This document shows positions 8,421-60,900 of a stretch of DNA of 64,000 nucleotides, piece by piece (positions within the stretch are counted from its first letter, which is position 1; each line of letters opens with the position of its first letter). Under the pieces are notes generated by a model that did not search any database, had not been told where the DNA came from, and saw only the letters and a program-made list of their open reading frames with translations. Source of the stretch: Escherichia coli (GTDB taxonomy: Bacteria; Pseudomonadota; Gammaproteobacteria; Enterobacterales; Enterobacteriaceae); NCBI RefSeq assembly GCF_009931435.1, contig NZ_CP043414.1; one strand, given 5' to 3'. Made by a program: the position numbers and the translations under genes.

Positions 8421-8789
8421 TATTGCAATCTCCTGTGTTGTAAATAGACGCTTCAAACTTAATTTTACGCCTACTACCATACAAGAGAGAAAGGGCGATT
8501 ATTCAACCGTGATCACATTAAAAATAAAAATTTCCGCCGAGGAACAAAAATATCCTCAAATCTCACCTACACTATTAACTACCATCGTTAAAACAACGTG
8601 TTAAATAATCACATAACAAATTCCTTTAAGGAAAGGAGTTATAACAACAACAAAAGATAATCATATTTTACTTAATTCAATACGTATCGATAGGTTTATT
8701 TAAAAAGGATTTTTCGGAATGAGAGATGAAAAGAAGATACACAAGCAGGAAGAAATACGATTAATATTAGTTGCGGTAAGGGTAGCCGT

Positions 8790-8910
8790 TCCTCCCTTCC
8801 GCAACCCATTAACCGTTGAAGTCACAGACTATTTCAGGCATTTCTCAACTCAAAATAACGACAGCCAACGTGAACTTTATGGCTCTCCAGGATCTGCTTT
8901 GTTTTCCATC
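8790..8910 (+). repeat. Degenerate second copy of the oxyS 3' half (oxyS-like relic)
   Basis: 8813-8905 ccgttgaagtcacagactatttcaggcatttctcaactcaaaataacgacagccaacgtgaactttatggctctccaggatctgctttgttttcc aligns to oxyS 5725-5816 at roughly 75-80 percent identity by eye; the 5' part of oxyS is not recognisable. Confidence 0.7.
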
Positions 8911-10387: not shown

Positions 10388-10403
10388 GATCCCTCCTTAG
10401 TTT

Positions 10404-14829: not shown

Positions 14830-14892
14830 AATATTCCTGAATACGACTAAAGGAATTCCGGGTCAAATTTGACCCGGTGATTTACGGTAAAA

Positions 14893-15897
14893 TTACAAGC
14901 CTAGCTTCACTAAACGTCGTGTATTTTCAAGATCGAGCTTTTCTGGATTATCACTATAAATAGTGTTGTTATTAACCTTGATCTCGCCCATATCACCGAT
15001 TTTTACACCGTCTTTAATAGGTTCACCGTTCATCATTGCCGTCGCAACCTGGACAAAAACCTTACCCGCAATCATAGGGTTTGAAATATATCCCCCATCA
15101 ATGGCACCTTTTTCGAGTAGCTTAATTCCCTGACCTGGAGTGAAGGTTCCAAAAACGCAAATTGCATCATTTTTCTTCCGCTTATCAATAGCACGCCCCG
15201 CACCAATTGGTCCTTGTGAACCAAATGACATAATGCCTTTAAGATCTTTATATTTAGACATTAAATCGTTCGTCGTGCGCATTGAATCATCCACCGACTC
15301 AGCAACACCAAAACGATCTTCAACCAACGTCATATTTGGATAATGTTCTTTTTGATAGGCAATCGCGGCATTGGCCCAGTCATTTACCAAAGGCACAGTC
15401 AGACTGCCGACAAACATGGCGTATTTACCTTCTTCGCCCATACACTTCGCCATATCTTTCATATGATTGGCACCCATTGTCTGGGTATTTAACAACTCAA
15501 AATCCCAATCTGCATTTTTTTGATCTGGTGATTCGTGGGTAATAACTTTAATACCGGCTTCTTGTGCACGCTTAAGTACAGGTTCAAGAACCTTTGCATC
15601 GTTAGGAACAACACCAATAACATCCACTTTTCGTGCAATTAAATCTTCAATCGCCCGAACCTGTTCAGCTGGATCTGCCGTTGTAGGGCCGACCTGCCAT
15701 GCATCAACCCCCAATAGTTTTCCTTCATTTTTAATGCCTTGTTCCATCACATTAAACCAGGGAATTCCACCGACTTTTACTACTACCCCCATCGTAAAAG
15801 GTTTATTCGCTTTTTGTGATGTTACAGTCTGATCAGCCCATGCAGCAGTGGAAGATAATACGGTAGCAATAAGGCAGGGTAAGATTAATTTTTTCAT
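14893..15897 (-). CDS. Periplasmic sugar-binding protein of the ABC transporter
   Basis: 334-aa ORF with signal peptide MKKLILPCLIATVLSSTAAWA and a periplasmic-binding-protein type I fold pattern; first gene after the regulator. Confidence 0.8.
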   Translation of the reverse strand: MKKLILPCLIATVLSSTAAWADQTVTSQKANKPFTMGVVVKVGGIPWFNVMEQGIKNEGKLLGVDAWQVGPTTADPAEQVRAIEDLIARKVDVIGVVPNDAKVLEPVLKRAQEAGIKVITHESPDQKNADWDFELLNTQTMGANHMKDMAKCMGEEGKYAMFVGSLTVPLVNDWANAAIAYQKEHYPNMTLVEDRFGVAESVDDSMRTTNDLMSKYKDLKGIMSFGSQGPIGAGRAIDKRKKNDAICVFGTFTPGQGIKLLEKGAIDGGYISNPMIAGKVFVQVATAMMNGEPIKDGVKIGDMGEIKVNNNTIYSDNPEKLDLENTRRLVKLGL

Positions 15898-16019
15898 CGT
15901 AATTTCCTTAAGAAATAGTTCAGGTGTCAGGAAAACTCGATATAATATCGACCTGACTATTTATATAATTTATAATCCCTTAGGCATTGATTAATAATTT
16001 AGACAATAAATAACGCCTA

Positions 16020-16829
16020 TTATTTATCAACCTCCACAATGTTTAATTGTGGAAATTGTGTTCGATACCGAGTATCTGTACAAACATTAGTCACCAGAAT
16101 ATCGATTTCATCCAGCGTGCATATTTTACTAAATGCATACTGTTCAAACTTAGTGGAGTCGACCAGCAATATTTTTTGTCCTGACACCTGAAGCATCACC
16201 TGTTTAAGTCTGGCATTAATTTCACTGCCATCGCGGACACCATTCCCCAGATTCAACCCCTGGCATGAAAAGAAAAAACTGTTGATTTGAAAATTTCGGA
16301 TCGCACTCTCTGCAACCGGGCCATGAAAATCATCATGTCGCTCAGAATACTCACCACCGATACCAATAATTCGAACTCGATCACGGCAAGCTAACGCCTG
16401 AATTATCCGTAATGAATTTGTAACTACGGTAACATCTATATCGGGAATTTGACGAGCTAAAAACCAACAAGTACTACTGTTATCCATTAAAATACAATCA
16501 CCAGGGTGAATAAATTGCAATGCGGCCTTCGCAATTCTGGCTTTTATATCAGGATTTTCTTCAGTCCGTTTACGGAATGATTCCGCACGATCGATACTAT
16601 TATCTTGCCACGCATTATCGGCGAGCATAACCGGAGCGCTATCAGATGAATCCAGAGCGACCGCGCCACCAAAGCTACGGATTAACTTTTTGTTGCGCTC
16701 CAGTACCGTTAAATCCCGACGAATTGTCTCAGGAGACGCTTTAAATAATCGTGATAATTCAGTTACCCGCACAGCACCTTGTTTTTGTACATGTGCGCAT
16801 ATCATTTTATGGCGCTCTGCCTGCAACAT
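16020..16829 (-). CDS. DeoR-family transcriptional regulator
   Basis: 269-aa ORF with N-terminal HTH (VRVTELSRLFKASPETIRRDLTVLERNKKLIRSFGGA) and a DeoR C-terminal sugar-phosphate-binding region. Confidence 0.85.
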   Translation of the reverse strand: MLQAERHKMICAHVQKQGAVRVTELSRLFKASPETIRRDLTVLERNKKLIRSFGGAVALDSSDSAPVMLADNAWQDNSIDRAESFRKRTEENPDIKARIAKAALQFIHPGDCILMDNSSTCWFLARQIPDIDVTVVTNSLRIIQALACRDRVRIIGIGGEYSERHDDFHGPVAESAIRNFQINSFFFSCQGLNLGNGVRDGSEINARLKQVMLQVSGQKILLVDSTKFEQYAFSKICTLDEIDILVTNVCTDTRYRTQFPQLNIVEVDK

Positions 16830-17270
16830 AGTATCGGTCCGTTATTATCAAATTAGCATGCTTATATAATTAACTGTTCCCTCATAAAATAAAGTGATAG
16901 GAATCAAGATTCATTTTATAATTATAATCGCAAACAGGAATGGTGATCTTTATCACAAATTAAATTGAGAACACTCTACTATTTGACATTACTTTGAGAT
17001 ATCGGTCACTAAATAAGTCTTATTCTGCCATCTAACGAAAAATTTAAATACAAAAACAAAAATAATCGGGCATAGCAATCGCTTCCATTCATGACCGAAT
17101 ACGCCCGAATAAAACCGTTTATACCCACTTATCCTCTTTCGTTGCCTTCTTACATGCCTTGAATATTTTACATTTCTTATATTCAGCGTAATTTAGGAAA
17201 CATAATTTATGAGCAAAAAAAGCCCAAACTCAAAAGTTAAAGTTTATTTATATAATACATACAGATTATC

Positions 17271-17975
17271 GTGGAGTTAAAAATGGATATGCTAAAGGAA
17301 AAAGTTCTTGCTGCGAATTTATCATTACCCCTTCATCAGTTAGTGACGTTTACCTGGGGAAATGTTAGTGGTGTTGATCGCGAAAAAGGTGTCATGGTTA
17401 TTAAACCTTCTGGGGTCGAATACAGCCAAATGGGCATTGCAGATATGGTGGTAGTGGATTTACAAAGTGGTGAAGTTATTGATGGACACAGGAAACCCTC
17501 TTCAGACACCGATACTCATCTGGCGCTATACCGTGCTTTCCCGGATATTGGTGGTATCGTTCATACCCATTCCCGACACGCCACAATATGGGCTCAGGCC
17601 GGAAAAGATCTCACGGCCTTTGGGACAACCCACGCTGATTATTTCTACGGCACTATCCCCTGTACACGCCCCATGAAGGATGACGAAATTAATGGACAAT
17701 ATGAATATGAAACGGGGCGAGTGATTATTGAAACGTTCAGACAACGAGAAATATCTCCCGCTGACATTCCGGCTGTTTTAGTAAACAGTCATGGCCCCTT
17801 TGCCTGGGGAACTGATCCCGCGAACGCCGTGCATAACGCCGTTGTACTTGAAGAAATTGCCTATATGAATCTCTTTACACAACAACTACAGCCCCATCTT
17901 ACGGCTATTCAACAGCCTCTACTGGATAAGCATTTTTTACGCAAGCATGGTGCCAATGCTTATTACGGGCAGTAA
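17271..17975 (+). CDS. L-ribulose-5-phosphate 4-epimerase (AraD/SgbE/UlaF class II aldolase family)
   Basis: 234-aa ORF; [41 protein letters not shown]...[17 protein letters not shown]...[16 protein letters not shown]...HSHGPFAWG...[17 protein letters not shown] is very close to AraD. Start may be one of the downstream Mets. Confidence 0.88.
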
Positions 17976-18024
17976 CCCTCTTAGCATGGCCTGGCGTTTT
18001 GCCAAGCCATAAATCGCCTAAGAC

Positions 18025-42428: not shown

Positions 42429-43322
<894 letters not shown>

Positions 43323-43400: not shown

Positions 43401-43559
43401 GAAAAGCTGAAGGGCGTCAACCGAAAAATGACCAATGATGGTGAGGAAAAATCAGGGAAGATGAAAAAAACTCATCTTAATTAGAGGTAATAAAGAGATT
43501 TCTTTATAGCGCAATCAACCTCACTCGTTTTGACTGATATACAGGCAACACAACGGCAC

Positions 43560-43660
43560 CTGTTCTCATTCGAAAAACAACGCCCTGCCACCGGATGGTG
43601 ATGCTAAAGCATCTGATTCGGCCTGCGCTCTCGTGTAGGCCGAATACAGAATCTGCGAAA
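43560..43660. repeat. REP-like palindromic element at the island boundary
   Basis: gattcggcctgcgctctcgtgtaggccgaatac carries a cggcct / aggccg inverted repeat resembling REP units. Confidence 0.4.
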
Positions 43661-43701
43661 TCAACGGGTAACAAACAGTAGAGTCAACTCAGTGCGTACT
43701 T

Positions 43702-45261
43702 TTACTTAATATCTTTCACGCGCATACCGTTGATCTGTTCATCCGTGATGGTATTACCCGCTTTAAAGTAATCAACCACCGCGTGATAAACGTAATAACC
43801 GCCCGTCGTATTGCGCGCTTTACCCTCGGTAAACGCGGTAAAACCATCTCCACCATCAGCAAGGAAACTCTGAGTGGCAATGTGGTAAACCGTCGCATCT
43901 TCAATCGGTTTGCCATTCAGAGTCAGCGAGATAACCCGCTGACCAACCGGCTTGCTGCTGTCGTACTTCATTTCCAGGCCTTTCGATACCTGTAAAACGC
44001 CATTACTCAAACTTGCGCCGTGTTCCATCAAACCGCGTAATTGTTTACCCGTGAGTTCCATCGTCACCAGTTCGTTGGGGAACGGGAAGGTACTGATGAC
44101 GCCACCCATCGTAATTGCACCCGCCGGGATCTCATTGCGAATCCCACCAGAGTTGGTTAACGCCAACTGGGTATTTTTACCCGCCGCTACCAGTAAAGCG
44201 TCCGCCGCCAGGTTCCCCAGGGATGCCGATTCACCATAGGCACGTTTTAATTCAACTGGCGATTGCGCCACCGTTTGCTGCACGACTTCATCCAGCTTTT
44301 TATTCCAACTATCAATCACCTGTTTTGTTTGCGCATCGGGCTTCCACTCGTCGGCGTAAAGGGTTTTAAGCTCGAAGTTTTTCACCGTAAAAGTGTGCGG
44401 TTTCTCTTTGAAGTCGAGAACCAGTTTACCCACATCAATCCCTCCGCTGTCAGTGGAAAGGATGAGCGTATTGCCGACTTTAATCGGTTCCGGCGTACCC
44501 ACATGTGCATGTCCGGTGATCAAAATATCCAGCCCTTTCACCTGACTTGCCGTCTGTATATCTTTATCCAGCGCGCGACGCACATCTGTGCCTCCCATAC
44601 TGGACTGGCGGGCCGGAACACCTTCGTGAATCAGGGCGACGGTCAAATCAACCTTGCCTTTGAGTTCATCGATATAACGTTGTAACCACTTAATTTCATC
44701 ACGCGCTTCAATACCCACTCGCGTGGCAGCGGATACCGTGTCATTAAAGGCAAATACTCCGTGCAAACCAATCACACCAATTTTCACGCCGTCTTTTTCA
44801 ATAATGGTATATGGCTTATCCCAGAATGATTTACTGCTGTTCTGATAAAAAATATTACCCTGCACAATCGGGAATTTTGCCTGACTCAACTGTAATAGGG
44901 TGTTGTCCCAGCCGTGATCAAATTCATGATTCCCTATAGTGACCGCATCGAACGGCATGGTATTCATAATATCGATAATCGCCTTGCCTTTAGTCAGGCT
45001 GCTGATATACGGCCCGGTAAAATAGTCACCCGCATCAAAAAACCAGGTCGCTTTGTTTTTAGCTTTTTCTTGTTTAACAAGCGTAGTGATATTTGCCCAG
45101 CCGCCAATATCCCGTTTACCGTCAGCAATCCACGGCACTTTATAAGGCTCTACATGTGCATGGAGGTCGTTGGTATAAATAATGGTGACATCTTTGGCGC
45201 AGGCCCAAAACGGCAGTGTTAATGCGATACCCGCAGCAAGCATTTTAATTTTCATAAACAA
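43702..45261 (-). CDS. Periplasmic bifunctional metallophosphatase / 5'-nucleotidase, UshA-like (paralog 1)
   Basis: 519-aa ORF with signal peptide ([17 protein letters not shown]), calcineurin-like motifs ([20 protein letters not shown]) and a C-terminal 5'-nucleotidase domain. Not in the K-12 metF-metL interval. Confidence 0.85.
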
Positions 45262-45387
45262 TCCCTTCCAGTGAGATAAAGGATTGCTACATTACGTTCT
45301 GAAAGGCTTTTTTATGTGAGAATACTCACATCCAGAGGCGATAACTGTAGGACAAAATCAACGACCTTATGAAATCGTTGGTGATAT

Positions 45388-46515
45388 ATGTCAAATCTGT
45401 TTGCGATTAATGTCTGTAAAACGTTCGGTTGTCGAAATTTGGGATTGGCCTCATCGGAAGATTACAGTTGGCCAGACTATAAACTGGGTTTTCCGGCACT
45501 GCACTGCCAGGCATGCGGAAGTTACCCCCCTTTGTTTGATGAACAACAATTTCGTGACTGGTTGTCAGTTCACATGACTGCGTGTGCCATAGAAACAGGG
45601 CATTTTTGTCCATCATGCTATTGTAAAGAAAAGATTTTTTATGGCCACAACCCGCAGGGAACACAACGCGTTCAATGCCGTTCATGCAAAAAAGTCTGGA
45701 CTCCGAAACAGCAGCCAGCAAGAGAAATTACGTATCCCCAGTCCATTGAAACCGTTCAACTGTTCATGCCCTTTCAAGGAGCCAGCGCAGTACAAAAGCT
45801 CTATGTTTTAGTCAGTCTTGACGCCACTCGTGGCAACATCCTTCATCTCTCCACGAATTATACGCAACATCAGACAGGAGACAGTCTGCGGTACAGTTAC
45901 AGAGGCAATACAGAACCAACTGAGCACCATAGCGATATTGTGCAGAGGGTAGATATGCGTGAAGCGCAATTCTTGCGCCGGAGCCAGTTCGATGAAATTC
46001 AGTATGGCAGTGCTGTGCTCAAGCGCAACGGCAAGGGAGCCATACTACGCCCGGTTATCACGGCACACGGGCATTTCAGAATACTGAAAATCCGCTTTCC
46101 ACATGTCAAAACGCATATCATTTCACACGAATGTTTTCTGAGAGGCGCAATTATTACAGCCTGGGCAGATCAGTTCCGCCAACAACAAGGCGAACTTTGG
46201 TTCGTAGAAGAAGAAATCAGCGACCGTAACGCTGATATTCCCTGGCATTTTCAGGGAACGACATACCATGGTTGGTGGCAAAATCAGTGGCAACGCTGGG
46301 GGCAGGGGAATAACAGCAAGATGGTCTGCCTGCTCACAGGAGTCTCCTTAGAAAGGGGCGCAAATGTTTCTCTGGCAACCAGTCGTTGCTTTATCACATG
46401 GCTGACAGACCAACACGACTTTACCCAAAGCGCGTTATTATCCGCAGGTCGCGTAACGAAAATGCTGACCTCACTGGCGTTAAAATACAATGAATCGCTC
46501 ACTCCATCTTGTTAG
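45388..46515 (+). CDS. Hypothetical protein with N-terminal cysteine cluster (putative zinc-ribbon), function unknown
   Basis: 375-aa ORF divergent from paralog 1; N-terminus has CKTFGC, CQACG, CPSCYC and CRSCKK motifs within about 100 aa. I do not recognise the family. Confidence 0.6.
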   Translation: MSNLFAINVCKTFGCRNLGLASSEDYSWPDYKLGFPALHCQACGSYPPLFDEQQFRDWLSVHMTACAIETGHFCPSCYCKEKIFYGHNPQGTQRVQCRSCKKVWTPKQQPAREITYPQSIETVQLFMPFQGASAVQKLYVLVSLDATRGNILHLSTNYTQHQTGDSLRYSYRGNTEPTEHHSDIVQRVDMREAQFLRRSQFDEIQYGSAVLKRNGKGAILRPVITAHGHFRILKIRFPHVKTHIISHECFLRGAIITAWADQFRQQQGELWFVEEEISDRNADIPWHFQGTTYHGWWQNQWQRWGQGNNSKMVCLLTGVSLERGANVSLATSRCFITWLTDQHDFTQSALLSAGRVTKMLTSLALKYNESLTPSC

Positions 46516-46744
46516 TCAATACACTCGACAAACGACCATAAATTAATGGGATCACTATTTCTCATTTAATTAAATATATGAATGTATGACTGAAAAATAT
46601 AATCACAGTCAATGTTTAATTAATAACATTATTTGTTACTAAGATCACATAATACTTTCCTGACCTATGCTCTTATAAAAATAAGACACGGTGTTCCTTT
46701 TATTTAAATAATTCAACCAATGTAACAACCCCTATCAAGGAGGG

Positions 46745-48298
46745 ATGATGAGAACTGTATTTACGACTTTATCAGTCATATTCAGCGTGATGTTTTCTCA
46801 CAGTATACTAGCTCAGGACGTTACTATTTATTATACGAATGATATTCACGCACATGTCAATCCGGCAAAAATTCCCGCTGTTGATAAGAACAGACTTGTA
46901 GGTGGTATGGCTAATATTGCAGGCATCGTTAATGAAGCGAAGAAAAAAAACAAAGATGTCTTTTTCTTTGATGCAGGCGACTATTTTACCGGTCCGTATA
47001 TCAGTACCCTGACCAAAGGTGAAGCTATTATTGATATCATGAACACCATGCCCTTTGATGCGGTGTCCGTTGGTAATCACGAGTTCGATCACGGCGTGCC
47101 CAATATGGTATCTCAGTTATCAAAAGCAAAATTCCCCATTCTGCTGGGAAATATTTACTACACCGATACAAATAGACCAGTTTGGGATCATCCGTGGACC
47201 ATTATCGAAAAAGATGGTTTAAAGATTGGTGTGATTGGATTGCATGGTGCATTCGCTTTCTATGATACAGTCGCGGCAAAAGCACGTGAAGGCGTAGAAG
47301 CCAGAGACGAAATTAAATATTTAAATAAAGCACTTGCAGAATTAAAAGGTAAAGTCGACATTACCGTTTTGCTAATTCACGAAGGTGTTCCGGCGCGTCA
47401 ATCAAGCTTTGGTAGTAAAGATGTGGAGCGGCTACTACAGGCAGATATTGAGACAGCTAAAAAAGTGAATGGTGTTGATGTCTTAATTACCGGTCACGCA
47501 CATGTCGGAACACCGCAACCAATAAAAGTTAATAACACATTAATTGTATCTACCGATGCATACGGCACCGACATCGGAAAACTTGTGCTTGATTACAATC
47601 CGAAAACAAAGAAAATTGATAGTTATAATGGTGAGTTAATCACCATCTTTGCAGATCAATTTAAACCTGACACCATCGTTCAAAATACTATCGATAAATG
47701 GAGCGTAAAGCTTAACAAAATCACACAGGAAGTTGTCGGCCATTCTCCCGTAGTTTTAACACGTGAGTATGGCAGTTCTTCTTCTACCGGTAACCTTATT
47801 CTGGATGCAATGATGGAAAAAGCACCTGATGCCATTGCCGGATTTCAAAATAGCGGTGGGATGCGAGCTGATTTTCCTAAAGGTGATATCACACTGGGAG
47901 ATGTTATTAGCACATTCCCCTTTAATAATGACCTCATCGAGATGGATTTGACGGGCCGCGATCTCAAATCATTGATGACGCATGCAACCAATCTAACTAA
48001 CGGTGTGTTACAGGTTTCAAAAAGCGTTGCGGTTGTCTATGACAGCAAAAAACCACTCAACCAGCGGTTAATCTCTTTCACCATTAACGGCAAACCCGTG
48101 GAAGATAATCAAACATATCGTATTGCCACGCACTCCTTTTGTGCCAGTGGTGGTGACGGTTTTGAAGCATTTTTGAATGGAAAAAATGTGAAGACGATAC
48201 CGGGAACAACCTCGGCGGAATCTATCATCGATTATTTCAAAAATCATAAACCTGTCACCCCAGACTTAACTAAACGAGTCATGGACGTCGCCAAATAA
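46745..48298 (+). CDS. Periplasmic bifunctional metallophosphatase / 5'-nucleotidase, UshA-like (paralog 2, most divergent)
   Basis: 517-aa ORF with signal peptide ending ILA-QD and the same NDIHAH / GNHEFDHG / GHAHVG motifs. Confidence 0.85.
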   Translation: MMRTVFTTLSVIFSVMFSHSILAQDVTIYYTNDIHAHVNPAKIPAVDKNRLVGGMANIAGIVNEAKKKNKDVFFFDAGDYFTGPYISTLTKGEAIIDIMNTMPFDAVSVGNHEFDHGVPNMVSQLSKAKFPILLGNIYYTDTNRPVWDHPWTIIEKDGLKIGVIGLHGAFAFYDTVAAKAREGVEARDEIKYLNKALAELKGKVDITVLLIHEGVPARQSSFGSKDVERLLQADIETAKKVNGVDVLITGHAHVGTPQPIKVNNTLIVSTDAYGTDIGKLVLDYNPKTKKIDSYNGELITIFADQFKPDTIVQNTIDKWSVKLNKITQEVVGHSPVVLTREYGSSSSTGNLILDAMMEKAPDAIAGFQNSGGMRADFPKGDITLGDVISTFPFNNDLIEMDLTGRDLKSLMTHATNLTNGVLQVSKSVAVVYDSKKPLNQRLISFTINGKPVEDNQTYRIATHSFCASGGDGFEAFLNGKNVKTIPGTTSAESIIDYFKNHKPVTPDLTKRVMDVAK

Positions 48299-48332
48299 AA
48301 TATCATTTATCAGTCTATTTATTTAACAAGGA

Positions 48333-49958
48333 ATGCGAATGAAAACAGTGCAGCGTACTTTACTTGCCGCAACATTGCTGACTATTTTTTCGGTTTCAGT
48401 CATGGCGCAGGATGTCACGATTATTTATACAAATGATCTTCACGCTCATGTGGATTCTTATAAAGTGCCGTATATCGCAGACGGAAAACGCGACATTGGC
48501 GGCTTTGCCAATATATCTACTTTAGTAAAACAAGAGAAAGCGAAAAATAAAGCCACCTTTTATTTTGATGCTGGAGACTATTTCACCGGCCCTTATATCA
48601 GCAGTCTGACAAAGGGCGAAGCAATAATTGACATTATGAATACCATGCCTTTTGACGCAGTATCAATCGGTAATCATGAGTTTGACCATGGCTGGGATAA
48701 TGCCCTGCGACAATTAAGCAAAGCGAATTTTCCTGTTTTATTGGGCAATGTTTATCATAAAGAGAGTGAGAAACCCTTCTGGAACAAGCCCTACACCATC
48801 CTGGAAAAAGATGGCATCAAGATTGGTATTATTGGGCTACACGGCGTATTTGCATTTAATGATACGGTCTCGGAGCTCTCTCTCCAGGGACTCGATAATG
48901 ACAATAATAACCGCTTTGATAAATCTTCCGAGACCCTTAAGAATCAGGGGATTGAAGCACGTGATGAAGTGAAGTATTTGCAACATTATATCGACGAGTT
49001 ACGTGATAAGGTTGACCTCACTGTGGCGCTGGTTCATGAAGGCGTTCCGGCGCGTCAGTCCAGCATTGGCAATACAGATGTTAGACGCGCTCTTGATAAA
49101 GATATTCAAACCGCTAGCAAGGTGAAAGGATTGGATATTCTGATTACCGGGCATGCCCACGTCGGAACGCCAGAACCAATCAAAGTCGGCAACACCTTAA
49201 TCCTTTCAACTGATAGTGGCGGTATCGATATTGGTAAATTAGTCCTTGATGTCAACCCTACAGCTCGTACCCATAAAATGAAGAGCTTTGAGCTGAAAAC
49301 AGTTTATGCCGATGAATGGATACCCGATCCAACGACACAAAAAGTTATCAATGGCTGGAATAAAAAACTGGCGGATATTGTACGCCAACCAGTGGGTGAA
49401 TCATCGATTGCATTAACTCGCGCCTATGGTGAGTCATCGCAACTAGGCAACCTGTTTACCGATGCAATGCTTGTCGCTGCTCCGACTGCACAGATTGCAT
49501 TGATAAACTCCGGCAGCTTACGTGCGGATATAAATGCAGGCACGATTACCTTTGGCGACATTACCAGTACATTCCCCTTCAAGAATGAACTTACTGAAAT
49601 GGATCTCAGCGGTAAGGATCTGCGTAACCTACTGGAACACGGGGCATCGCTTACCAATGGCATCCTGCAAATGTCAAAAGGCGCAGAAATGCGCTATACC
49701 CCGCAGAAACCAGTAGGTCAGCGCATAGTATCTTTTAAAATTAATAGTGAAGAGATCGTTGATACGAATATTTACCATGTTGCAACAACGACTTTCCTTG
49801 CACTGGGGGGCGATGGTTTTCTGGCATTCAAAGAAGGGAAAAATGTTCAGGTCCGCGCCGGAAATAACATGTCCGATGTCGTGATCGATTATTTGAAGAA
49901 AGGCCACAAGATTACGCCTGCACAGGTAAATGAAATGCGGGTGGACGTTAGCAAATAA
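48333..49958 (+). CDS. Periplasmic bifunctional metallophosphatase / 5'-nucleotidase, UshA-like (paralog 3)
   Basis: 541-aa ORF, about 70 percent identical by eye to paralog 1, with an extra roughly 25-aa insert (ELSLQGLDNDNNNRFDKSSETLKNQ). Confidence 0.85.
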   Translation: MRMKTVQRTLLAATLLTIFSVSVMAQDVTIIYTNDLHAHVDSYKVPYIADGKRDIGGFANISTLVKQEKAKNKATFYFDAGDYFTGPYISSLTKGEAIIDIMNTMPFDAVSIGNHEFDHGWDNALRQLSKANFPVLLGNVYHKESEKPFWNKPYTILEKDGIKIGIIGLHGVFAFNDTVSELSLQGLDNDNNNRFDKSSETLKNQGIEARDEVKYLQHYIDELRDKVDLTVALVHEGVPARQSSIGNTDVRRALDKDIQTASKVKGLDILITGHAHVGTPEPIKVGNTLILSTDSGGIDIGKLVLDVNPTARTHKMKSFELKTVYADEWIPDPTTQKVINGWNKKLADIVRQPVGESSIALTRAYGESSQLGNLFTDAMLVAAPTAQIALINSGSLRADINAGTITFGDITSTFPFKNELTEMDLSGKDLRNLLEHGASLTNGILQMSKGAEMRYTPQKPVGQRIVSFKINSEEIVDTNIYHVATTTFLALGGDGFLAFKEGKNVQVRAGNNMSDVVIDYLKKGHKITPAQVNEMRVDVSK

Positions 49959-50036
49959 TAAAAAAATTATAATGCCATTCATTCACTGAATGGCATTATT
50001 TTTCTCTAAATCAACAATAGATAATGAGATATATTT

Positions 50037-50897
50037 ATGTGTATAAAAAAGCACGGGATAGCTTTATCGATTCTATTAATACCTTGCATTGGAAACGCTC
50101 AGGAAATTAAAAGTGAGGAAGGCTGGTTACATCAAAGCTTGAATGTCATTGGTCGCACAGACTCTCGCTTTGGCCCAAGGCTGACTAACGACCTCTACCC
50201 TGAATATACTGTAGCAGGAAGAAAAGACTGGTTTGATTTTTATGGTTATGTTGATCTACCAAAATTCTTTGGCGTCGGCAGTCACTATGATGTTGGGATC
50301 TGGGATGAGGGCTCACCACTATTTACGGAAATAGAACCTCGGTTTTCCATTGACAAATTGACCGGATTAAATCTTGCGTTCGGCCCTTTTAAAGAATGGT
50401 TCATTGCAAACAACTATGTCTATGATATGGGTGACAACCAGTCATCCCGGCAAAGTACATGGTATATGGGGCTTGGTACAGATATCGACACGGGTCTACC
50501 AATTAAGCTTTCTGCCAATATATACGCCAAGTATCAGTGGCAAAACTATGGTGCCGCTAATGAAAATGAATGGGACGGATATCGATTCAAAATAAAATAT
50601 AGCATTCCTCTTACCCATTTATTCGGAGGGCGATTGGTATACAATAGTTTTACTAACTTTGATTTTGGCTCCGATCTTGCGGACAAATCACACAATAATA
50701 AACGAACCAGTAATGCTATTGCTTCAAGCCATATCCTTTCCCTGCTATATGAACACTGGAAATTTGCATTTACACTACGTTATTTTCACAACGGTGGACA
50801 ATGGAATGCTGGGGAGAAAGTTAACTTCGGAGATGGTCCATTTGAATTAAAAAACACAGGATGGGGAACCTATACTACTATTGGTTATCAATTTTAA
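50037..50897 (+). CDS. Tsx-family nucleoside-specific outer-membrane channel
   Basis: 286-aa ORF with signal peptide; [110 protein letters not shown]...GYQF follows Tsx nearly block for block. Confidence 0.88.
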
Positions 50898-51042
50898 ATC
50901 AGGTGATGTTTTAGATATTTTTACTTAATGCCATTTTGTAATTGTCATAAATAACTTCACCATTCACACTGTGAATTCATCGCTCAACACAAAAGCCCCC
51001 TTATTACCGGGGCACTGACCAAAGGCAAAATGACAATCAATC

Positions 51043-51104
51043 ACCACCTCCGCAGGAGGTGGTTTAGAGGTGACAACAAAAGCTGGCAACTGCCAGCTTT
51101 TGTT
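51043..51104. terminator. Two hairpins between the convergent tsx-like gene and metL
   Basis: caccacctccgcaggaggtgg and aaaagctggcaactgccagcttttgtt inverted repeats. Confidence 0.5.
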
Positions 51105-51113
51105 CAATAATCA

Positions 51114-53546
51114 CTACAACAACTGCGCCAGACGGTTAATATCCGACTGAATCGCCCCGGCGGTGACGTCGCGCCCTGCGCCTGGCCCACGGATCACCAG
51201 CGGGTTGTCGCGATACCAGCGGCTTTCGATGGCAAAGACGTTATCGCACGGTAGTAGTGATGCCAGCGGATGGTCTTCTCGCACCGCTTCCACGCCTACT
51301 CGCGCTTTGCCGTTAGCATCGAAACGCGCCACGTAGCGCAACACCAGCCCCATTTCACGGGCCGCTTCCAACCGTTGTACCATCTGCTCATTAAGTTCAT
51401 CGCCATTTTCAAAGAAATGGTCGATGCTGCCACCTTCGCAATGGGTTGGCACCAGTGATTCAACACGCACCTGGTCCGGTTCAATGTTGTAACCCGCTTC
51501 ACGCGCCAGAATCACCAGCTTGCGCATCACGTCTTTGCCGGAGAGGTCATCACGCGGGTCAGGTTCAGTTAAGCCCTGCTGCCACGCCTGATCCACCAGC
51601 TCGGTAAACGGCACGCTACCGTCGAATTGCAGGAACAGCCAGGAGAGCGTGCCGGAGAAGATCCCGCTGATCGACAAAATAGTGTCGCCGCTGTCGATCA
51701 GATCGCGCACGGTATGGTTGATCGGCAAACCTGCGCCGACGGTGGCGTTGTATAGCCAGTGACGCCCGGTTTTTTCGAACGCGTCGTGGATCTGTCGATA
51801 TTTATTGCTGTCGCTGGCTCCCGCCAGTTTGTTGGCACTGATGACGTGGAAACCGTGGCTGGCGAAATCGAGATACTGATCAGCAAGCTGCTGGCTGGCA
51901 GTAACGTCCAGCACAACTAAATCATCATACGGATGGGCACGCATCCACAGGAACAGCGACTCTTCATCCTGTTCGACGGCTTCATCATTAAAGAAGGCTA
52001 GCGCACGGCTGGCGTCCAGCCCGTCATAGCTCAACAGGCTGCGACGGCTGTCCACCACGCCTGCCAGCACAAATTCAAAGCCGGTGCGCGCCGAGAGTGT
52101 ACTCTGCTCACGGGCGAACAGTTCCAGCCAGCGGGAACCGATATTGCCCTTACCGAACAATACCAGGCCGATGCGTTTTTCTGCGCGGAAGACGGACTGA
52201 TGCAGCCCCTGAATCAGGCTTTCGGTCGGGCCGGTGCGCAGTACTGCCACCAGGCTGATGCCGTCATCGGACTGCCAGGTAAACTCGACCGGCTGGCCTT
52301 TCAGTTGCTGCCAGAAGCGGTGGCAATGCAGCGGGTTACGGGTGACGCCCGCCCCAACCATCGCCACCAGCGCCAGCCCCTGACGCAGACGCAGTTCGCC
52401 GGGTAATCCTGCTTCGTCGAGGATTTTCAGCGCACTGTCGGCCACTTCCGAGGTGTAGCAAAATTGCAGCAACTGGCGATCGTTATGCACGCCAACTGCC
52501 AGTGGGCGCACCTGAGCACGTTTCAGGATTTGGTCGATCTCTTTATGCGCCAGTTTAAAATCCTGACTGGCGGGCACCTGAAACTCAATCAAACAGACAT
52601 CATCGTGGCTGGTGACAATACGCGCGCCAGTACCTGAGGCCAGCACGCGTTCAATGCGCGTGGAACCTTGATCCGGCGTGTAGCTACAGCGCAGCTGCAG
52701 GTCGATTTCGCTGCCAGAAACTGGCTGTAAAGTACGGGCGTGAAGAACGGGGGCCGCCAGACGCGCCAGTTCGCTGGCTTCATCCAGACGCAGCAACGGC
52801 AGCAGGCAGGCGTCTTTCACTTTACGCGGGTCGGCGCTATATACCCCGGCGACATCGCTCCAGATGGTTACGCGGGAAACTCCCGCCAGCGCACCGATTT
52901 GTGTCGCGGAATAGTCGGAACCGTTACGCCCCAGCAGCACCGTTTCACCGGCGTTGTTACGGCTGATAAACCCGGTCACCACCAGACGTTTGCCCGGATG
53001 TTGTACCAGTAGCTGTTGCAGCAACGGGTAAGAAAGCCCTTCATCAACCTGCGGCTGCGCGGCGCGTTCAGCGCGTAAAAACTCGCGGGCATCAAGCCAG
53101 GCCGCTGGCAGCCCTTGTTGATTAAGTACCGCAGACATCAGGCGCGCCGACCACACTTCACCGTGGCCCACCACTTCCGCATACACCGCATCGTTAATAC
53201 CGCTGTCGAGCAGCGCCGCCAGGCGTTCCAGATCGCTGACAAAAGCGCTAATGAGGCTATCGGCTTCTTCAGCGGGTAGCAGGCCGCTAATCAGATCGCA
53301 CTGATAGCGACGCAGCGTTTGTTGAACCTGATGCGCAGAGAGACGATCGGTCTGGCTTAGTTTCAACCAGTTAATCAACTGGTTAGTGGTGCTACCGGCG
53401 GCGGAAACCACCATCATATCGTCAGGCTGAGAGTACTCCGCCATAATGCCCGCGACACGCAAATAACACTTCACATCAGCCAGACTACTGCCACCAAATT
53501 TATGCAGTTGACGACCTTTCGCCCCTGCCTGCGCAATCACACTCAT
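51114..53546 (-). CDS. metL: Bifunctional aspartokinase II / homoserine dehydrogenase II
   Basis: 810-aa ORF MSVIAQAGAKGRQLHKFGGSSLADVKCYLRVAGIMAEY. Confidence 0.95.
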   Translation of the reverse strand: MSVIAQAGAKGRQLHKFGGSSLADVKCYLRVAGIMAEYSQPDDMMVVSAAGSTTNQLINWLKLSQTDRLSAHQVQQTLRRYQCDLISGLLPAEEADSLISAFVSDLERLAALLDSGINDAVYAEVVGHGEVWSARLMSAVLNQQGLPAAWLDAREFLRAERAAQPQVDEGLSYPLLQQLLVQHPGKRLVVTGFISRNNAGETVLLGRNGSDYSATQIGALAGVSRVTIWSDVAGVYSADPRKVKDACLLPLLRLDEASELARLAAPVLHARTLQPVSGSEIDLQLRCSYTPDQGSTRIERVLASGTGARIVTSHDDVCLIEFQVPASQDFKLAHKEIDQILKRAQVRPLAVGVHNDRQLLQFCYTSEVADSALKILDEAGLPGELRLRQGLALVAMVGAGVTRNPLHCHRFWQQLKGQPVEFTWQSDDGISLVAVLRTGPTESLIQGLHQSVFRAEKRIGLVLFGKGNIGSRWLELFAREQSTLSARTGFEFVLAGVVDSRRSLLSYDGLDASRALAFFNDEAVEQDEESLFLWMRAHPYDDLVVLDVTASQQLADQYLDFASHGFHVISANKLAGASDSNKYRQIHDAFEKTGRHWLYNATVGAGLPINHTVRDLIDSGDTILSISGIFSGTLSWLFLQFDGSVPFTELVDQAWQQGLTEPDPRDDLSGKDVMRKLVILAREAGYNIEPDQVRVESLVPTHCEGGSIDHFFENGDELNEQMVQRLEAAREMGLVLRYVARFDANGKARVGVEAVREDHPLASLLPCDNVFAIESRWYRDNPLVIRGPGAGRDVTAGAIQSDINRLAQLL

Positions 53547-55971: not shown

Positions 55972-56063
55972 TGGATGATGAAAAAAATAATTCCCGCCGT
56001 AGTCTGTTTGTTGCTTTGTAGTTGCACGACCTTTCCGCAAGCTGTCGCTCCGGCAGGGAAAGA

Positions 56064-57202
56064 TTACGAAAGCCCGCTCCCCGCAAGGACTGACGCCAGA
56101 TACTTTCTGTCCATGGCTGCTTTTCGCATCTTACGTCTTAACCCTGCCTTGAATACCTTATCATTCGTTAAAATATTAATAGCGATGTGCCGTATCCCTG
56201 AAAATAATTCTGCGGCGTTTCCTCTTCGTATTTTGCAGTCGTCTTCATTCATTACCACGTCCAGACGCCAGTGCAGCTTATTCTCCACGTGCCAGTGATT
56301 TCGGATCGCTGTGGCGAACTTTTCTGCGGTTAAATCAGCAGAACTGATATAATATCTGACCGTCATTTCTGGCTCTTTCTTTTGTTCTGCTATTATTGAC
56401 CGAAAGGAGAATGCCACGCATAATTTCTTCAGTCCTTTCCATTCAAACGTGAAATCAATAAGTTCATCACGGACATCGCAAACAATATGAAGACGGATTT
56501 CTTCTCTGCCGTGACTCTTTTCACTCATTGCGTAACTGTCATGCTCTGGATTATTTAATTCTTTCAGCGGAAATTTTTCCTCGAAGGCTTTATTTAGCCG
56601 CCCCTGATTTCCTTTTACAGAGAATAAATAATCACCTCCCTGTTTTTGTATCTTCTCTGCAATATCTTTCTGGCAACCCATCGCATCAGTTGTGATAATT
56701 TTTCCTTTATATCCAGCATGTTAAGAAGTTCAGGGATAGCAGTAATCTCATTGGATTTCTCATCCGTCTTGATCTGTCCGATGACCAGACTGTGCATTGT
56801 TGAGAACGCACTAATGACATGAATCGCTCCCCTGCGGCGACTCTTGTCATAAGAATGCCGGAGTGTTTTTCCATCAATTGCGATGACGTCTTTATCATCT
56901 GAAGTATGGCAATCTCGCATCCAGTTAATAAAGCACTCGTGAAATTTTGAAGGACTGATACAGGATACAACTCTGGCGATGGTATCGTGAACAGGAATAC
57001 CATTTTCAAAATCACCATATTGTTTTAAAAAATCGCGATGTGCTTCCCCAAAATCCTCTATATGTTCCCAGCCTTCTGCACCAGAAATAACGGCACAAAT
57101 AGTCAACAGTAGAATATCCGACAATTTATGTTTCACTTTTGCAGGATTGTCTGCAATCGGGAATAACAGAAATATGTTCCATCAATTTTTTAAGTTCCAT
57201 TC
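56064..57202 (-). pseudogene. H-repeat-associated (ISAs1-family) transposase, disrupted by at least two frameshifts
   Basis: ORFs 56615..57136 and 56064..56681 together span an H-rpt transposase ([22 protein letters not shown]...DIKEK / [20 protein letters not shown]...[18 protein letters not shown]). The first codons ([11 protein letters not shown]) sit further upstream in another frame, reverse complement of 57170-57202. Confidence 0.8.
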
Positions 57203-57339
57203 TTTTCTCCTTAATTATGTAAGGAGTATTTGATCATGTATAAGCAATAAAAAAACAGCTTCAGGCAATGAGGAATATCTCAATTTTTAAACATAAAATG
57301 CGAATTGTTTAGTACAAAAAAGCAGCGTTAAGTGATCTT

Positions 57340-57585
57340 TCCCTGTCGGCATGTTGACCACTGACGAATGGGGTAGTTACGCTAGAGAGTTACCAAAGGA
57401 GAAGCATCTGACTGGTAAGATTTTTACTCAGCATATTGAGCGTAACAATCTGACCCTGAGAACCCGAATCAAACGTCTGGCCCGCAGAACCATCTGTTTC
57501 TCGCGTTCTGTAGAACTTCATGAAAAAGTCATCGGTGCTTTTATCGAAAATATATGTTCTACTAATTGGAGTCATCACCCTTCTG
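57340..57585 (+). mobile_element. IS1-family 3' remnant (InsB C-terminal fragment plus terminal inverted repeat)
   Basis: ORF 57351..57665 begins MLTTDEWGSYARELPKEKHLTGKIFTQHIERNNLTLRTRIKRLARRTICFSRSVELHEKVIG, matching the InsB C-terminus; aattggagtcatcaccc at about 57565-57580 resembles the IS1 terminal repeat. Confidence 0.7.
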
Positions 57586-57634
57586 ATGAGCTTTCCTTGG
57601 ATGATTACCAGACTGAATACATAGCCAAAGATTT

Positions 57635-57958
57635 TTACCTCATTCTGCTTTTTTTTCTCAAATGACATATATTATATTTTATATCATATTCATAGGCATA
57701 TGACATTCCCCCGCCCCCCATTATGTCATTGTGGGTTGATGTTGGGCTTTCATAAAAAAATACATCTTTTTTTGAACTAGCATTAATTATATTTACTTTA
57801 TATATTAAAATATTTTCTCCATCTGGAAATATTTTAGCCACACAATATAAAGCAGCTAAATCCGAATTACTTAAAAATATATTGTCATCACTCATAACTC
57901 CAGCCATTAAATGACTGGAGACTAAAGCAAGGAAATAACAACATTGTATTACCTTCAT
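57635..57958 (-). CDS. Candidate Rhs immunity protein (small AT-rich ORF overlapping the rhs stop)
   Basis: ORF 57635..57994; the MKVIQCCYFLALVSSHLMAG Met gives a 107-aa product starting 2 nt inside the rhs stop codon region. Assigned as immunity by position only. Confidence 0.6.
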   Translation of the reverse strand: MKVIQCCYFLALVSSHLMAGVMSDDNIFLSNSDLAALYCVAKIFPDGENILIYKVNIINASSKKDVFFYESPTSTHNDIMGGGGMSYAYEYDIKYNICHLRKKSRMR

Positions 57959-57959
57959 T

Positions 57960-60900
57960 TTAATTACTCCCTTGCCTGATAATTGTAACTCCATTCCCTT
58001 TAGCTTTGGGATTATATTTTAGATAGGTGTTATTTGGTGTTCCCAAGTAACTACTGTATTCTTTTTTTCCCATTCCATTCATATAAGAATTCGTTAAATC
58101 TTTGCTTGAAAAATTTAGACTATCATAAACATCATTTTCTTTTGTTACTTTATTTCCTTTATCGTCAGAGTAAAAACCGTGAGTGTGATAATCGCCTACT
58201 CTCTCTGAACCTTCAGGGCATTTTATATTTCGCAAGTCTACACTATCATTATCATTTGAACTTATCGGATTCATGGGGAAATATTCACCTTGCTTCTTAC
58301 ATATTAGTCCACCATATTCTTTATTCTCGTTAATTGATTCTCCATTACACATTGCCAATGCAAATATTCCAATATCATCTATATTTTTTGATTTAAATTC
58401 ATATAATCCTAATGGATCCATGCCATTCACCGGGCTCAGCGGATATGTATACAGGTTCCATCCCCCCTTCAGCCCAATCGGATCCTGAGTGATATACCGC
58501 CCCTGCAGCGGGTCATAATAGCGGTGGCGGTTGTAATACAGGCCGGACTCCTCATCATACTGCTGACCCGGCAGGCGGATGAGCTGCTGCAGCTGGTGCG
58601 GGTTCTCTTCATTCAGCAGGTTGCCCCATTCATCGTATTCTGCGCACCATTCTGTTGCCCCTTCCGTGCTGATAAGCACCAGCGGCAGGCCGCGATGGTC
58701 GCAGTGGTACAGGTGGATTTTTCGCGCCGGCGTGTACACCGGTTCCATCTGGTTTTGCATCTGCGCCACCGTCAGGCCGCACGATGCCAGCCAGCGGCGG
58801 CTTTCCTCACTCACCCGGTCAGCCAGGATTTCACTTTCCAGCCGGTCGAGCATCTGCACCAGCACCGGCGGGAACACCACACTGCCACCGTCTTCGCCGC
58901 CGGACTGCTGAAGCGCATCCGCCAGGCTGCGGCGCTGCGTTTTCGCCAGCTCACCGGTGGCGGTTTCGACCCTGATGAGTGGCGTGAAGCTCCCCGGCTG
59001 ATAAACCGTCTGGATGCGGGTTCTGTCGTTCTGTATCGTGGTCAGCCGGTCGCCGTCCCAGCCGTACCAGGTCACTTCCGGTTTCCGTGACAGCGACATC
59101 CAGCCCGTCAGGTCCCGTTCACGCCGCCACACCCGTTTTGCCACCCTGCGGCCCAGCGGGTCGTAAAGATAGCGACTTTCGACCAGCGGCTCTGCATATT
59201 GTGTCCGCGTGTAGTGCACCAGCCGGTGCCGGCTGTCGTAATGGTACCGGTGAGTCCGCTCATCATCCGTGCGGATAACCCCTTCCGGGATGAGGTCGGT
59301 TTTCTCTGTCAGCCTGCCGTGACGGTCATACCGGTAAAGATAGTGCGCGTCACGGGCGATACGGTTATCCGGCCACATGCTGAGGGTGCTGTCCGGGTGC
59401 AGCTCCGGGTCGGGCAGGCGGTTACCTGCCGGGTCCGTGGCATACGGGATGCGGATATCCAGATTCGCTGCGGTGGTGTGAACGCCGGTCAGCCTGCCGG
59501 TGGTGCTGTAGCTGTAACTCCGGGTCTGGCGCGGGCTGCTGATGCGAATGAGTTCGCCGTTGTCGTTCCAGGTGTAATCGCGGTCATACTGCAGGCTGTT
59601 CAGGTGCTGGCTCTGTAACTGCCCGGCAGGGGTGTAAGCGGTGGTGAGTTCATAACGGCCGAAGCTGCGCAGCGTTTCCCGGTGCAGGCGGTCGCGGGTG
59701 AAATCCACCAGCGGTGTGTCGCCGAGTTTCATCCCTGCCAGGTAACCACTGCCATAAGTCAGCCATTCCACGGCGGGCAGGCTGTCCGGTATACAGCGGT
59801 TCGCCAGCCCCTGCGCGTTGTACGCATGTCTGGTTTCATGCTGCCAGAGCAGTGCTTCCGTCTGCGGGTGATGCACCGTCTGGCGCTCACCGGTCAGGCG
59901 GCCTTTCTCATCATACCCGTAATGCACCGTCACCCGGTGCCCTTCGCTGAGATGGCTGATGCCTGTCAGCCAGCCGCGTTCGTCGTACCGCCACTGTTCT
60001 GCGGTTTCACCATTCACCGTTCGCTGCGTGATGCGGTCTGCTTCGTCATAGTGCCAGTGGGTGACCAGTCCCTCATCCTCGCTGCGGATAAGTTTGCCGG
60101 TCAGGTCGTGGTGATAACGCTGTGTGCGGCCGTCAAAGCCGGTTTCCTGTATCAGCCGGTCGAGTACATCGTAACGGAAGGTGGTGTGGCTGCCGTTTTC
60201 GTTTGTCAGGCGGATGACCCGTCCTGCAGCATCGTATTCCATACTGCGGGTCAGCCCGCCCTGCGTGGTACGGACGGCCTTTCCCCACGCATCGTACTGT
60301 GCCCCGTATCTGCTGCCGTCCGGGGCAATGACGGTGGTCAGGTCACCGGCGGCGTTGTATTCATACCGCGTTTCATGGCCCTGCGTGTCTTTCACCGCAA
60401 TTAACTGTCCATGGCTGTCGTATGCGCGGCACTGGCTCAGGCCTTCCTCGCGGTGCACCGCCGTCATCTGCCCGAAGCGGTCATGGTCATAACGGGTCTG
60501 GTAGCCGGAACAGTCGGTGAAGGTCAGCAACTGACCGTAACGGCTCCACGTCATGGTTTTCCGGCTGCCGGTGGCATCTTCCGTTGCGCAGGGGAAGTCA
60601 CTGTGTGGATTATCATAACGGTAGCGGATGATATCGCCGTCAGGGGCAGTTTCCTGAATCAGACGGCCGGATTCATCATATTCCCGGCGTATTTCCAGCC
60701 CGTCAGGCCCGGTGGCTGACGTTAACTGGTTGTGGTGGTTATAGTAAAACGCCGATGCCCTGCCATCCGGCGTGGTGATGCGCGTGATGAGTCCCGTCAC
60801 CACATCCGGGCTGTATTCTGTTGTCCGGCCTGCGGCATCCGTCTGTGTCCTGAGCCTGCCCACCGCGTCAAACTGACTCTGCGTGACGCTGCCGTCCGCG

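Follow-up and report, generated by a model that had tools for sequence, protein, structure and literature searches.

How did three related and strongly diverged 5'-nucleotidase genes come to lie side by side between metF and metL of an Escherichia coli chromosome, with the most similar two in opposite orientation and one of them carrying a segment of its own? The question is raised by positions 43702-49958 of a stretch of 64,000 nt from that chromosome (the window, to whose numbering all positions refer unless another locus is named), which hold the paralogues, here called P1, P2 and P3, together with a gene for a cysteine-cluster protein; a gene for a Tsx-family channel completes the five genes of the accessory region. 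An earlier note on this DNA had described a diverged triplication, the maintenance of which was taken to suggest substrate specialisation rather than recent duplication. The answer proposed here, to which a probability of about 0.6 can be assigned, is that the region is an old accessory locus for nucleotide scavenging and not a local triplication.

Three intact and long-diverged nucleotidases

Judged by their domains and conserved residues, P1, P2 and P3 are all intact members of the CD73/UshA-type dimetal 5'-nucleotidase superfamily. They are encoded by three intact open reading frames (ORFs), P1 on the minus strand and P2 and P3 on the plus strand, and each protein scores above the Pfam cut-offs for both Metallophos and 5_nucleotid_C. 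P1 and P3 have the cysteine-cluster gene and P2 between them and are the most similar pair, as the earlier note had seen by eye; its estimate of about 70% identity becomes 68% at the amino-acid level when measured, and P2, which it had regarded as the more divergent copy, shares 57% with P1 and 57% with P3. The codon-aligned nucleotide identities are 66.5% (P1-P3), 58% (P1-P2) and 59% (P2-P3). The catalytic residues were compared with those known for UshA from the literature: metal ligands D41, H43, D84, N116, H217, H252 and Q254, the dyad H117-D120, and the base clamp F429/F498. The dimetal ligands and the catalytic His-Asp dyad are kept in all three paralogues and in nearly all members of their clades, the sole exceptions being found in the P1 clade, where at least one sequence is gapped in the alignment at the first and second ligand. 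The position of Q254, the third ligand of site 1, is Gln in UshA and His in the subfamily of P1, P2 and P3, where it is part of a GHAH motif. The base clamp and the phosphate and ribose contacts of P1 (F394, F466, R375, N396 and D472) have equivalents in P2 and P3, and no clade has lost the two stacking phenylalanines or the Arg, Asn and Asp that contact the substrate.

With UshA the paralogues share the two-domain architecture, the dimetal ligands, the His-Asp dyad and the Phe-Phe base clamp, but they are not its orthologues: in the NCBIfam model of UshA (NF007109) they reach only 152.9, 164.9 and 153.7 bits against a cut-off of 600, and the tree branch between them is about 1.6 substitutions per site long. 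The models of CpdB (NF006938; 102.1, 82.7 and 98.2 bits against a cut-off of 486, with matches in the N-domain only) and NadN (TIGR01530; 132.6, 123.5 and 122.3 bits against 436) failed as well. As all these scores are far under the cut-offs, the three proteins form, by their profile matches, a subfamily separate from UshA, CpdB and NadN that is represented by the structure PDB 3IVD. The E. coli protein of 3IVD and 3IVE is essentially P1, with a full-length match of 1109 bits and a handful of substitutions in the alignment. It also aligns with P3 over the full length (755.8 bits) and lacks the 20-residue insertion of P3; unlike this P1 orthologue, P2 and P3 are without a solved structure. The two entries, which come from structural genomics and are listed only as 'Nucleotidase', presumably show the product of locus c4898 from strain CFT073 in complex with uridine or cytidine, and no biochemical characterisation of the protein was found in the literature searched.

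That the three genes adjoin, and that the most similar pair lies in opposite orientation, could point to a recent local duplication with inversion inside E. coli, the copies of which are now drifting. The near-identity at the nucleotide level that such an event would leave is not seen, as the copies share only 58-66.5% of their nucleotides, and synonymous divergence (dS) between them is saturated, with an undefined NG86 estimate. Nucleotide matches across paralogues are at 75-76% and never exceed 76%, and there are no long identical tracts, which rules out recent duplication and has also led to the rejection of recent gene conversion between the paralogues. Each paralogue has instead its own orthologues in other genera, with 85-92% identity, and the respective clades are supported at 98-100%. 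A recent duplication can thus be regarded as effectively refuted already.

It could also be supposed that one or two copies have lost their catalytic activity or are decaying into pseudogenes, given that the locus is missing from 66% of E. coli genomes, that the closest genome has only a pseudogene of the adjoining tsx, and that IS1 insertions occur in some strains. Yet all three ORFs have full length and every catalytic and substrate-binding residue is kept, so that there is no pseudogene among the three, and the ratio of nonsynonymous to synonymous divergence (dN/dS) between two E. coli alleles of the complete region is only 0.024 for P1, 0.127 for P2 and 0.071 for P3, with 0.04-0.06 for P3 across genera. 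Decay is therefore very improbable. The three enzymes are old, intact and under purifying selection, and the view of the earlier note that the copies are maintained and not recent holds on all these grounds: saturated dS, cross-genus clades of their own, intact catalytic residues, and an orthologue dN/dS of 0.02-0.13.

An ancestral pair and an added unit

The arrangement of the locus was followed in a synteny survey with one genome per species, in which the cysteine-cluster protein served as anchor and the genes were mapped in the retrieved loci. In Citrobacter, Klebsiella, Kosakonia, Phytobacter, Kluyvera, Superficieibacter and Pseudocitrobacter the order is metF, P1 on the minus strand, the cysteine-cluster gene on the plus strand, and metL, and the same is found in Escherichia whittamii, in 'short-form' E. 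coli, and in Salmonella arizonae, where the cysteine-cluster gene is truncated. Because this arrangement is conserved across these genera, it is P1 and the cysteine-cluster gene that make up the ancestral, divergently transcribed pair at metF-metL in the Enterobacteriaceae. P2, P3 and tsx are a co-directional unit that has been added downstream of this pair. In a neighbour-joining tree with 100 bootstraps, the P1 clade (100%) and a broad P3 clade (98%) are joined with 98% support, and the P2 clade stands outside; the broad P3 clade consists of a subclade with the insertion (99%) and of relatives without it (Cronobacter, Atlantibacter and one Citrobacter). The word triplication is thus not appropriate: the metF-metL gap was ancestrally occupied by P1, the unit P2-P3-tsx is separate from it, and P1 and P3 group together with P2 as their outgroup. 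Likewise, an inverted duplication was rejected as the cause of the orientation of P1 and P3, which is explained by the divergent-promoter layout and the added operon.

The complete region, in the following called the long form, is also present in Citrobacter enshiensis, in exactly the layout of the window and at the same site. Between C. enshiensis and the window, dS is 1.0-1.6 for P2, P3 and tsx and 1.0-1.2 for the flanking metF, metL and katG, and as the added genes are therefore as diverged as the flanking core genes, the long form must be old. In the window, the region takes the place of 199 bases in E. coli K-12 that are unrelated to it; when the K-12 spacer between metL and metF is aligned by BLAST to the window, the match stops at 43469 and restarts at 51115.

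Among 5426 complete E. coli genomes, 658 (about 12%) have the long form, 97 of them with the cysteine-gene allele of the window and 561 with a variant of 90-95% identity. The short form, with only P1 and a distinct cysteine-gene allele, was found in about 1180 genomes (about 22%), for example in sequence type 131 (ST131). This patchy occurrence, with 66% of the genomes having neither form, could mean that E. coli acquired the long form recently, as a mobile island, and that the paralogues mirror the content of a donor rather than selection in E. coli. Such an origin would also fit the GC content of P2 and P3 (0.41-0.44, against 0.56-0.58 in windows over katG and metL), the difference between long- and short-form cysteine alleles (72% identity, against 97% for P1), and the related modules elsewhere in the chromosome, of which the one between chaA and kdsA is an example. 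But there is no integrase, tRNA or repeat at the borders, and the layout and site are the same in C. enshiensis, where dS matches that of the core genes on either side. Because of this match and the bare borders, a long residence is favoured, with spread and loss by homologous recombination and deletion and without a mobile element; the recent island is a more credible account than duplication or decay, and still an unlikely one. In comparison to the short form of ST131, P1 of the window has 93% identity at the DNA level and 97% at the protein level, and the cysteine-cluster gene only about 75% and 72%. As P1 is so close to the ST131 allele while the cysteine-cluster gene is far diverged, these identities indicate that the locus is a mosaic with the cysteine-cluster gene as its fast-evolving outlier.

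The same region has been described as GR31 (metL..metF) in the avian pathogenic E. coli strain BEN2908 and other extraintestinal strains, with the same genes as in the window, namely three UshA-like ORFs of 1554, 1551 and 1620 bp and a Tsx homologue, for which nucleoside processing and transport were proposed (PMC12928451, 2026). The available part of that report treats the region by annotation only, without a paralogue phylogeny, the insertion, the cysteine-cluster gene or other genera (PMC12928451).

In other genomes an alternative module occurs at other chromosomal sites, in which P3-tsx-P2-(P2')-P1 are all on one strand, divergent from the cysteine-cluster gene. E. coli SCPM-O-B-8794 has the short form at metF-metL (retrieved locus L013) and a second module between chaA and kdsA (L018, 2260-11131) that comprises four genes for nucleotidases, one for Tsx and a cysteine-cluster gene of its own. 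Directly 3' of the P3 orthologue, the alternative module carries a radical SAM/SPASM gene resembling anaerobic sulfatase maturases (L015, 2955-4043; L018, 1135-2226; L040, 2779-3930), and no Cys/Ser-x-Pro/Ala-x-Arg maturase target motif is obvious in the nucleotidases. In C. enshiensis, an extra gene of 327 amino acids with the hydrophobic look of a membrane protein lies in the tsx-metL gap (L053, 12037-13020) and is not present in the window. The annotation of the closest genome, R32_14_1F, gives tsx as a pseudogene (L001, 9738-10583); IS1 lies within the island in strain EC17CM2 and within the cysteine-cluster gene in strain AVS0456.

The positions of all features are collected in Table 1. 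The P1 ORF spans 43702-45261 with a possible extension to a TTG at 45261, the RefSeq-style start being at 45255. More distant neighbours outside metF and metL are katG and metB. Elsewhere in the window, the GC content of 8001-18000 and 56001-58000 is 0.39-0.46, in comparison to about 0.52-0.56 in the remainder, which suggests further accessory segments.

Table 1. Position and strand of the features at the metF-metL locus in the 64,000-nt window.
Feature	Position	Strand	Basis or remark
metF	42429-43319	minus	flank of accessory region
Accessory region between metF and metL	43470-51114 (7.6 kb)	none	BLAST against K-12 spacer
P1, 5'-nucleotidase paralogue, 517 aa	43702-45255	minus	Pfam, structure match, synteny
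CRP-type core TGTGA-N6-TCACA, perfect	45315-45330	none	divergent promoter region of P1 and cysteine-cluster gene
Palindrome CAACGACC...TCGTTG	45359-45380	none	just 5' of cysteine-cluster gene start
Cysteine-cluster gene, 375 aa	45388-46515	plus	two Cys4 zinc ribbons and predicted RNase H-like core
Second CRP-like core TGTTA-N6-TCACA	46634-46649	none	conserved footprint 5' of P2
P2, most divergent 5'-nucleotidase paralogue, 516 aa	46748-48298	plus	ORF from 46745
P3, 5'-nucleotidase paralogue with insertion, 539 aa	48339-49958	plus	ORF from 48333 (541 aa)
P3-specific segment ELSLQGLDNDNNNRFDKSSETLKNQ, net +20 aa	48873-48947	plus	found in P3 subclade only
Hairpin with 13-bp stem in P3-tsx gap	49969-49999	none	candidate terminator or attenuator
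Tsx-family outer-membrane nucleoside channel paralogue, 286 aa	50037-50897	plus	Pfam and NCBIfam
Terminator-like hairpin just downstream of metL	51043-51063	minus	hairpin scan
metL	51114-53546	minus	opposite flank of accessory region

Probable nucleotide scavenging and the insertion in P3

As a scavenging locus, the region would function in the following way. Nucleotides that reach the periplasm would be dephosphorylated by P1, P2 and P3, which are presumably secreted, and the resulting nucleosides would then be taken up, the extra Tsx channel improving their passage across the outer membrane. Expression would be under catabolite (CRP) control, the three enzymes would probably share out the substrate range, and the insertion in P3 would remodel the loop of the N-domain that caps the nucleobase upon domain closure. 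The Tsx paralogue is clearly assigned by Pfam (Channel_Tsx, 236.5 bits against a cut-off of 27.2, E=4.9e-70) and by NCBIfam (PRK15106, 491.8 bits against 311). The CRP core between P1 and the cysteine-cluster gene is the only exact TGTGA-N6-TCACA in the whole window, and it is kept with at most one mismatch in 17 of 19 sequences (the window and 18 orthologous loci). It is part of an intergenic region (45300-45387) that shows a strong phylogenetic footprint across genera, including a conserved TTACGTTCTGAAAG box. The footprint that contains the second core has been kept in both E. coli and C. enshiensis, with diverged flanks. The arms of the palindrome, which was also flagged as a hairpin, are conserved across genera while its spacer varies, and it is possibly an operator or a hairpin in the 5' untranslated region. 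The place of the P3-tsx hairpin is also occupied in C. enshiensis, by a different sequence. An Rfam scan of the island gave no known RNA family and thus no riboswitch upstream of P2, and a generic promoter scan was uninformative, with 11 promoter-like sites against 18.1 in shuffled sequence.

The enzymes might instead act mainly on host or signalling nucleotides, such as extracellular ATP or AMP that is converted to adenosine, nicotinamide adenine dinucleotide or cyclic nucleotides, and thus serve in colonisation or virulence. Extraintestinal pathogenic lineages often carry the long form, both among the complete genomes and in the GR31 report (PMC12928451), and the superfamily includes CD73 and NadN. 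The short form, however, is a core pair in many non-pathogenic Enterobacteriaceae, and CRP-type control and the neighbourhoods with Tsx and nucleoside catabolism suggest a use as nutrients. A primary role in virulence is thus slightly less probable than even the recent mobile island.

Within the scavenging function, a substrate specialisation of the three paralogues, as the earlier note had suggested, is plausible. A partitioning of substrates predicts clade-specific residues near the base clamp, and this pattern is seen, which is not a proof. Constant within each of the clades are 307 alignment columns, of which 90 differ from clade to clade; these 90 include position 395 between the stacking Phe and the Asn (P, N or K), positions 465 and 467 that flank the second Phe, positions 373-379 around the phosphate-binding Arg, and positions 177 and 179 in the loop of the insertion.

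This insertion is the segment ELSLQGLDNDNNNRFDKSSETLKNQ, residues 181-205 of the 541-residue P3 ORF, in which 25 residues replace 5 residues of P1 and P2. That the extra segment is specific to P3 was noticed before (at about 48871-48948) and is borne out by the alignment, but its location and nature had to be revised. It does not lie between the metallophosphatase and the linker, but inside the Metallophos domain (Pfam 29-277), about 130 residues before the inter-domain region, where it follows the ligand motif GNHE (N114/H115) and precedes HEG (H235), with GHAH (H274/H276) further on. The term low-complexity is misleading for it, as there is only a short D/N run, and almost every other residue is conserved in P3 of E. 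coli, Escherichia albertii, Citrobacter and Enterobacter. All 15 other proteins of the P3 subclade have the insertion (16 with P3 of the window) and no other member of the family has it, which is why it is, by its distribution, a derived insertion. It follows the pattern ELS[LI]QGLDN[DN]xxNRFDKSxxxLKNQ with fixed length and few variable positions, and its identity between genera is about 80%, like in the rest of P3; it is under constraint.

Human CD73 helps to see what the insertion could do. It is a full-length homologue (E about 1e-32) of the same open/closed domain-rotation family, but it is a eukaryotic dimer with a glycosylphosphatidylinositol anchor, and its corresponding loop has normal length without any counterpart of the insertion. 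In a HMMER alignment of P1 with CD73, the insertion point (S177/A178 of P1) pairs with Leu184/Ser185, a mapping that is accurate to about two residues at best. In the closed CD73 enzyme, the carbonyl of Leu184 is 3.9 Å from the C6 amino group of adenine, and an effect on base preference has been proposed (PMC8677862). The insertion in P3 is thereby a candidate determinant of specificity or closure. A neutral expansion of a surface loop without function would agree with the D/N-rich run, the position in a loop, and the fact that the other two paralogues do without it, but the same length and about 80% identity in four genera, variation at few positions, and the location at the loop homologous to the Leu184 region, near the base in the closed state, make neutrality doubtful, though it keeps more weight than a mobile origin or a virulence role of the locus. 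The canonical EF-hand loop pattern PS00018 of PROSITE has Glu or Asp at position 12. By inspection, the core D-N-D-x-N-x-R-F-D of the insertion is reminiscent of a calcium-binding loop and fits positions 1, 3, 5, 6 and 9 of the pattern, which is broken, however, by Phe at position 8 and Ser/Ala at position 12, and also at position 13.

The signal peptide of P1 and of most P1 and P3 orthologues ends with LP[FL]WAC-AKD, including a conserved Cys (45195-45255 in the window), and those of P2 and P3 of the window end with ...LA-QD and ...MA-QD, both without Cys. By these ends, P1 may differ from P2 and P3 in localisation or anchoring. An assignment of P1 as a lipoprotein because of the FWAC before the mature end was set aside, since the lipobox does not accommodate a Trp at -2 and an Ala-x-Ala site for signal peptidase I fits.

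Several points weigh against an old scavenging locus with specialised enzymes and have to be considered. There is no published assay of P1, P2 or P3 in the literature searched, the signal peptides of the nucleotidases were assessed by eye, the CRP sites are consensus matches, and the mapping of the insertion onto CD73 crosses a gapped loop. The placement of P2 relative to homologues of Vibrio and Providencia has a support of only 48-62%, in the neighbour-joining tree only. Finally, the function must be dispensable, because most E. coli have neither form and tsx is a pseudogene or IS1 is inserted in some strains.

The cysteine-cluster gene

The partner of P1 in the ancestral pair, a gene for a 'cytoplasmic protein' by name, encodes a protein with eight near-invariant cysteines in two Cys4 ribbons (C10/C15/C40/C43 and C74/C77/C97/C100), the second of which gives weak matches to InsA and IS1595 zinc ribbons, with one distant member above the Pfam cut-off. 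An AlphaFold2 model from 16 close homologues was unusable (predicted local distance difference test score, pLDDT, 36.7), and an alignment of 68 sequences from a hidden Markov model search of the whole library was used instead. The resulting model confidently predicts the two zinc ribbons and an RNase H-like core of the DDE (Asp-Asp-Glu) type, which is the catalytic fold of DDE transposases. The only acidic columns that are conserved family-wide are D145 (78% D/E), D202 (87%) and E248 (99%), and their spacing and the predicted topology would be compatible with a DDE triad. A Foldseek search of the PDB with the model gave no significant match, and Pfam at permissive thresholds returned only zinc ribbons and no catalytic transposase domain.

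The protein was compared with DDE transposases and integrases (ISCth4, TnsB, the integrases of PFV and HIV, Mos1 and Tn5) and with the zinc ribbons of IS1 and IS1595. Unlike DDE insertion sequences, the gene is present in a single copy per genome at a fixed syntenic site, has no terminal inverted repeats around it beyond the level of chance, and has no sequence match to transposase domains. It behaves as a domesticated gene and not as an insertion sequence. It evolves fast, as the protein is only 64% identical to that of C. enshiensis, in comparison to 85-92% for P1, P2, P3 and Tsx, and its nonsynonymous divergence (dN) is 0.19-0.27 against 0.01-0.08 for the nucleotidases (window versus L002, L003 and L053). 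At least three allele classes exist in E. coli, and the breakpoint on the P1 side is near the intergenic region.

The family is very small, and every informative neighbourhood of a distant member holds genes for nucleoside or nucleotide scavenging (L043, 9983-11368; L045, L047, L048, L049 and L051). In Motilimonas, the gene lies between deoD-tal-deoB-nupC and tsx-add; another distant member has nupC and a nucleoside phosphorylase in its neighbourhood, some have a 5'-nucleotidase as their direct neighbour, and further neighbourhoods contain a porin, an AphA-type acid phosphatase and a class II cyclic-nucleotide phosphodiesterase, or Tsx, a sulfatase and a radical-SAM maturase (L051, 4847-5989). 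With the fold as modelled, the cysteine-cluster protein is most likely a domesticated transposase-like protein that serves the scavenging genes, probably as a regulator. A wider reading, which can be offered only tentatively and is more likely wrong than right in its entirety, is that the gene founds a small and undescribed family of domesticated DDE-transposase-like proteins, in which the acidic triad is largely retained and which regulate or sense genes for the scavenging of periplasmic nucleotides and nucleosides across Gammaproteobacteria, that the palindrome is the operator, and that the insertion in P3 is a base-selectivity lid, possibly an EF-hand-like metal-binding helix-loop-helix.

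The pattern of the paralogues as such is largely ordinary gene-family history, in a known superfamily with one solved structure and in a region that has already been annotated, and the finding on the paralogues is thus a modest one. The parts of most interest are the position of the insertion and the transposase-like partner gene, the product of which is the most interesting by-product of the analysis. If the substrate range is indeed split, the locus would show how some E. coli, many extraintestinal pathogens among them, and most of their relatives in Citrobacter and Klebsiella harvest extracellular nucleotides beyond what UshA, CpdB and AphA provide. P3 would amount to a natural experiment on the loop that caps the base, a hotspot of drug design in human CD73. 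The cysteine-cluster gene would give a clear case, in bacteria, of a transposase that has been domesticated and tied to one metabolic function.

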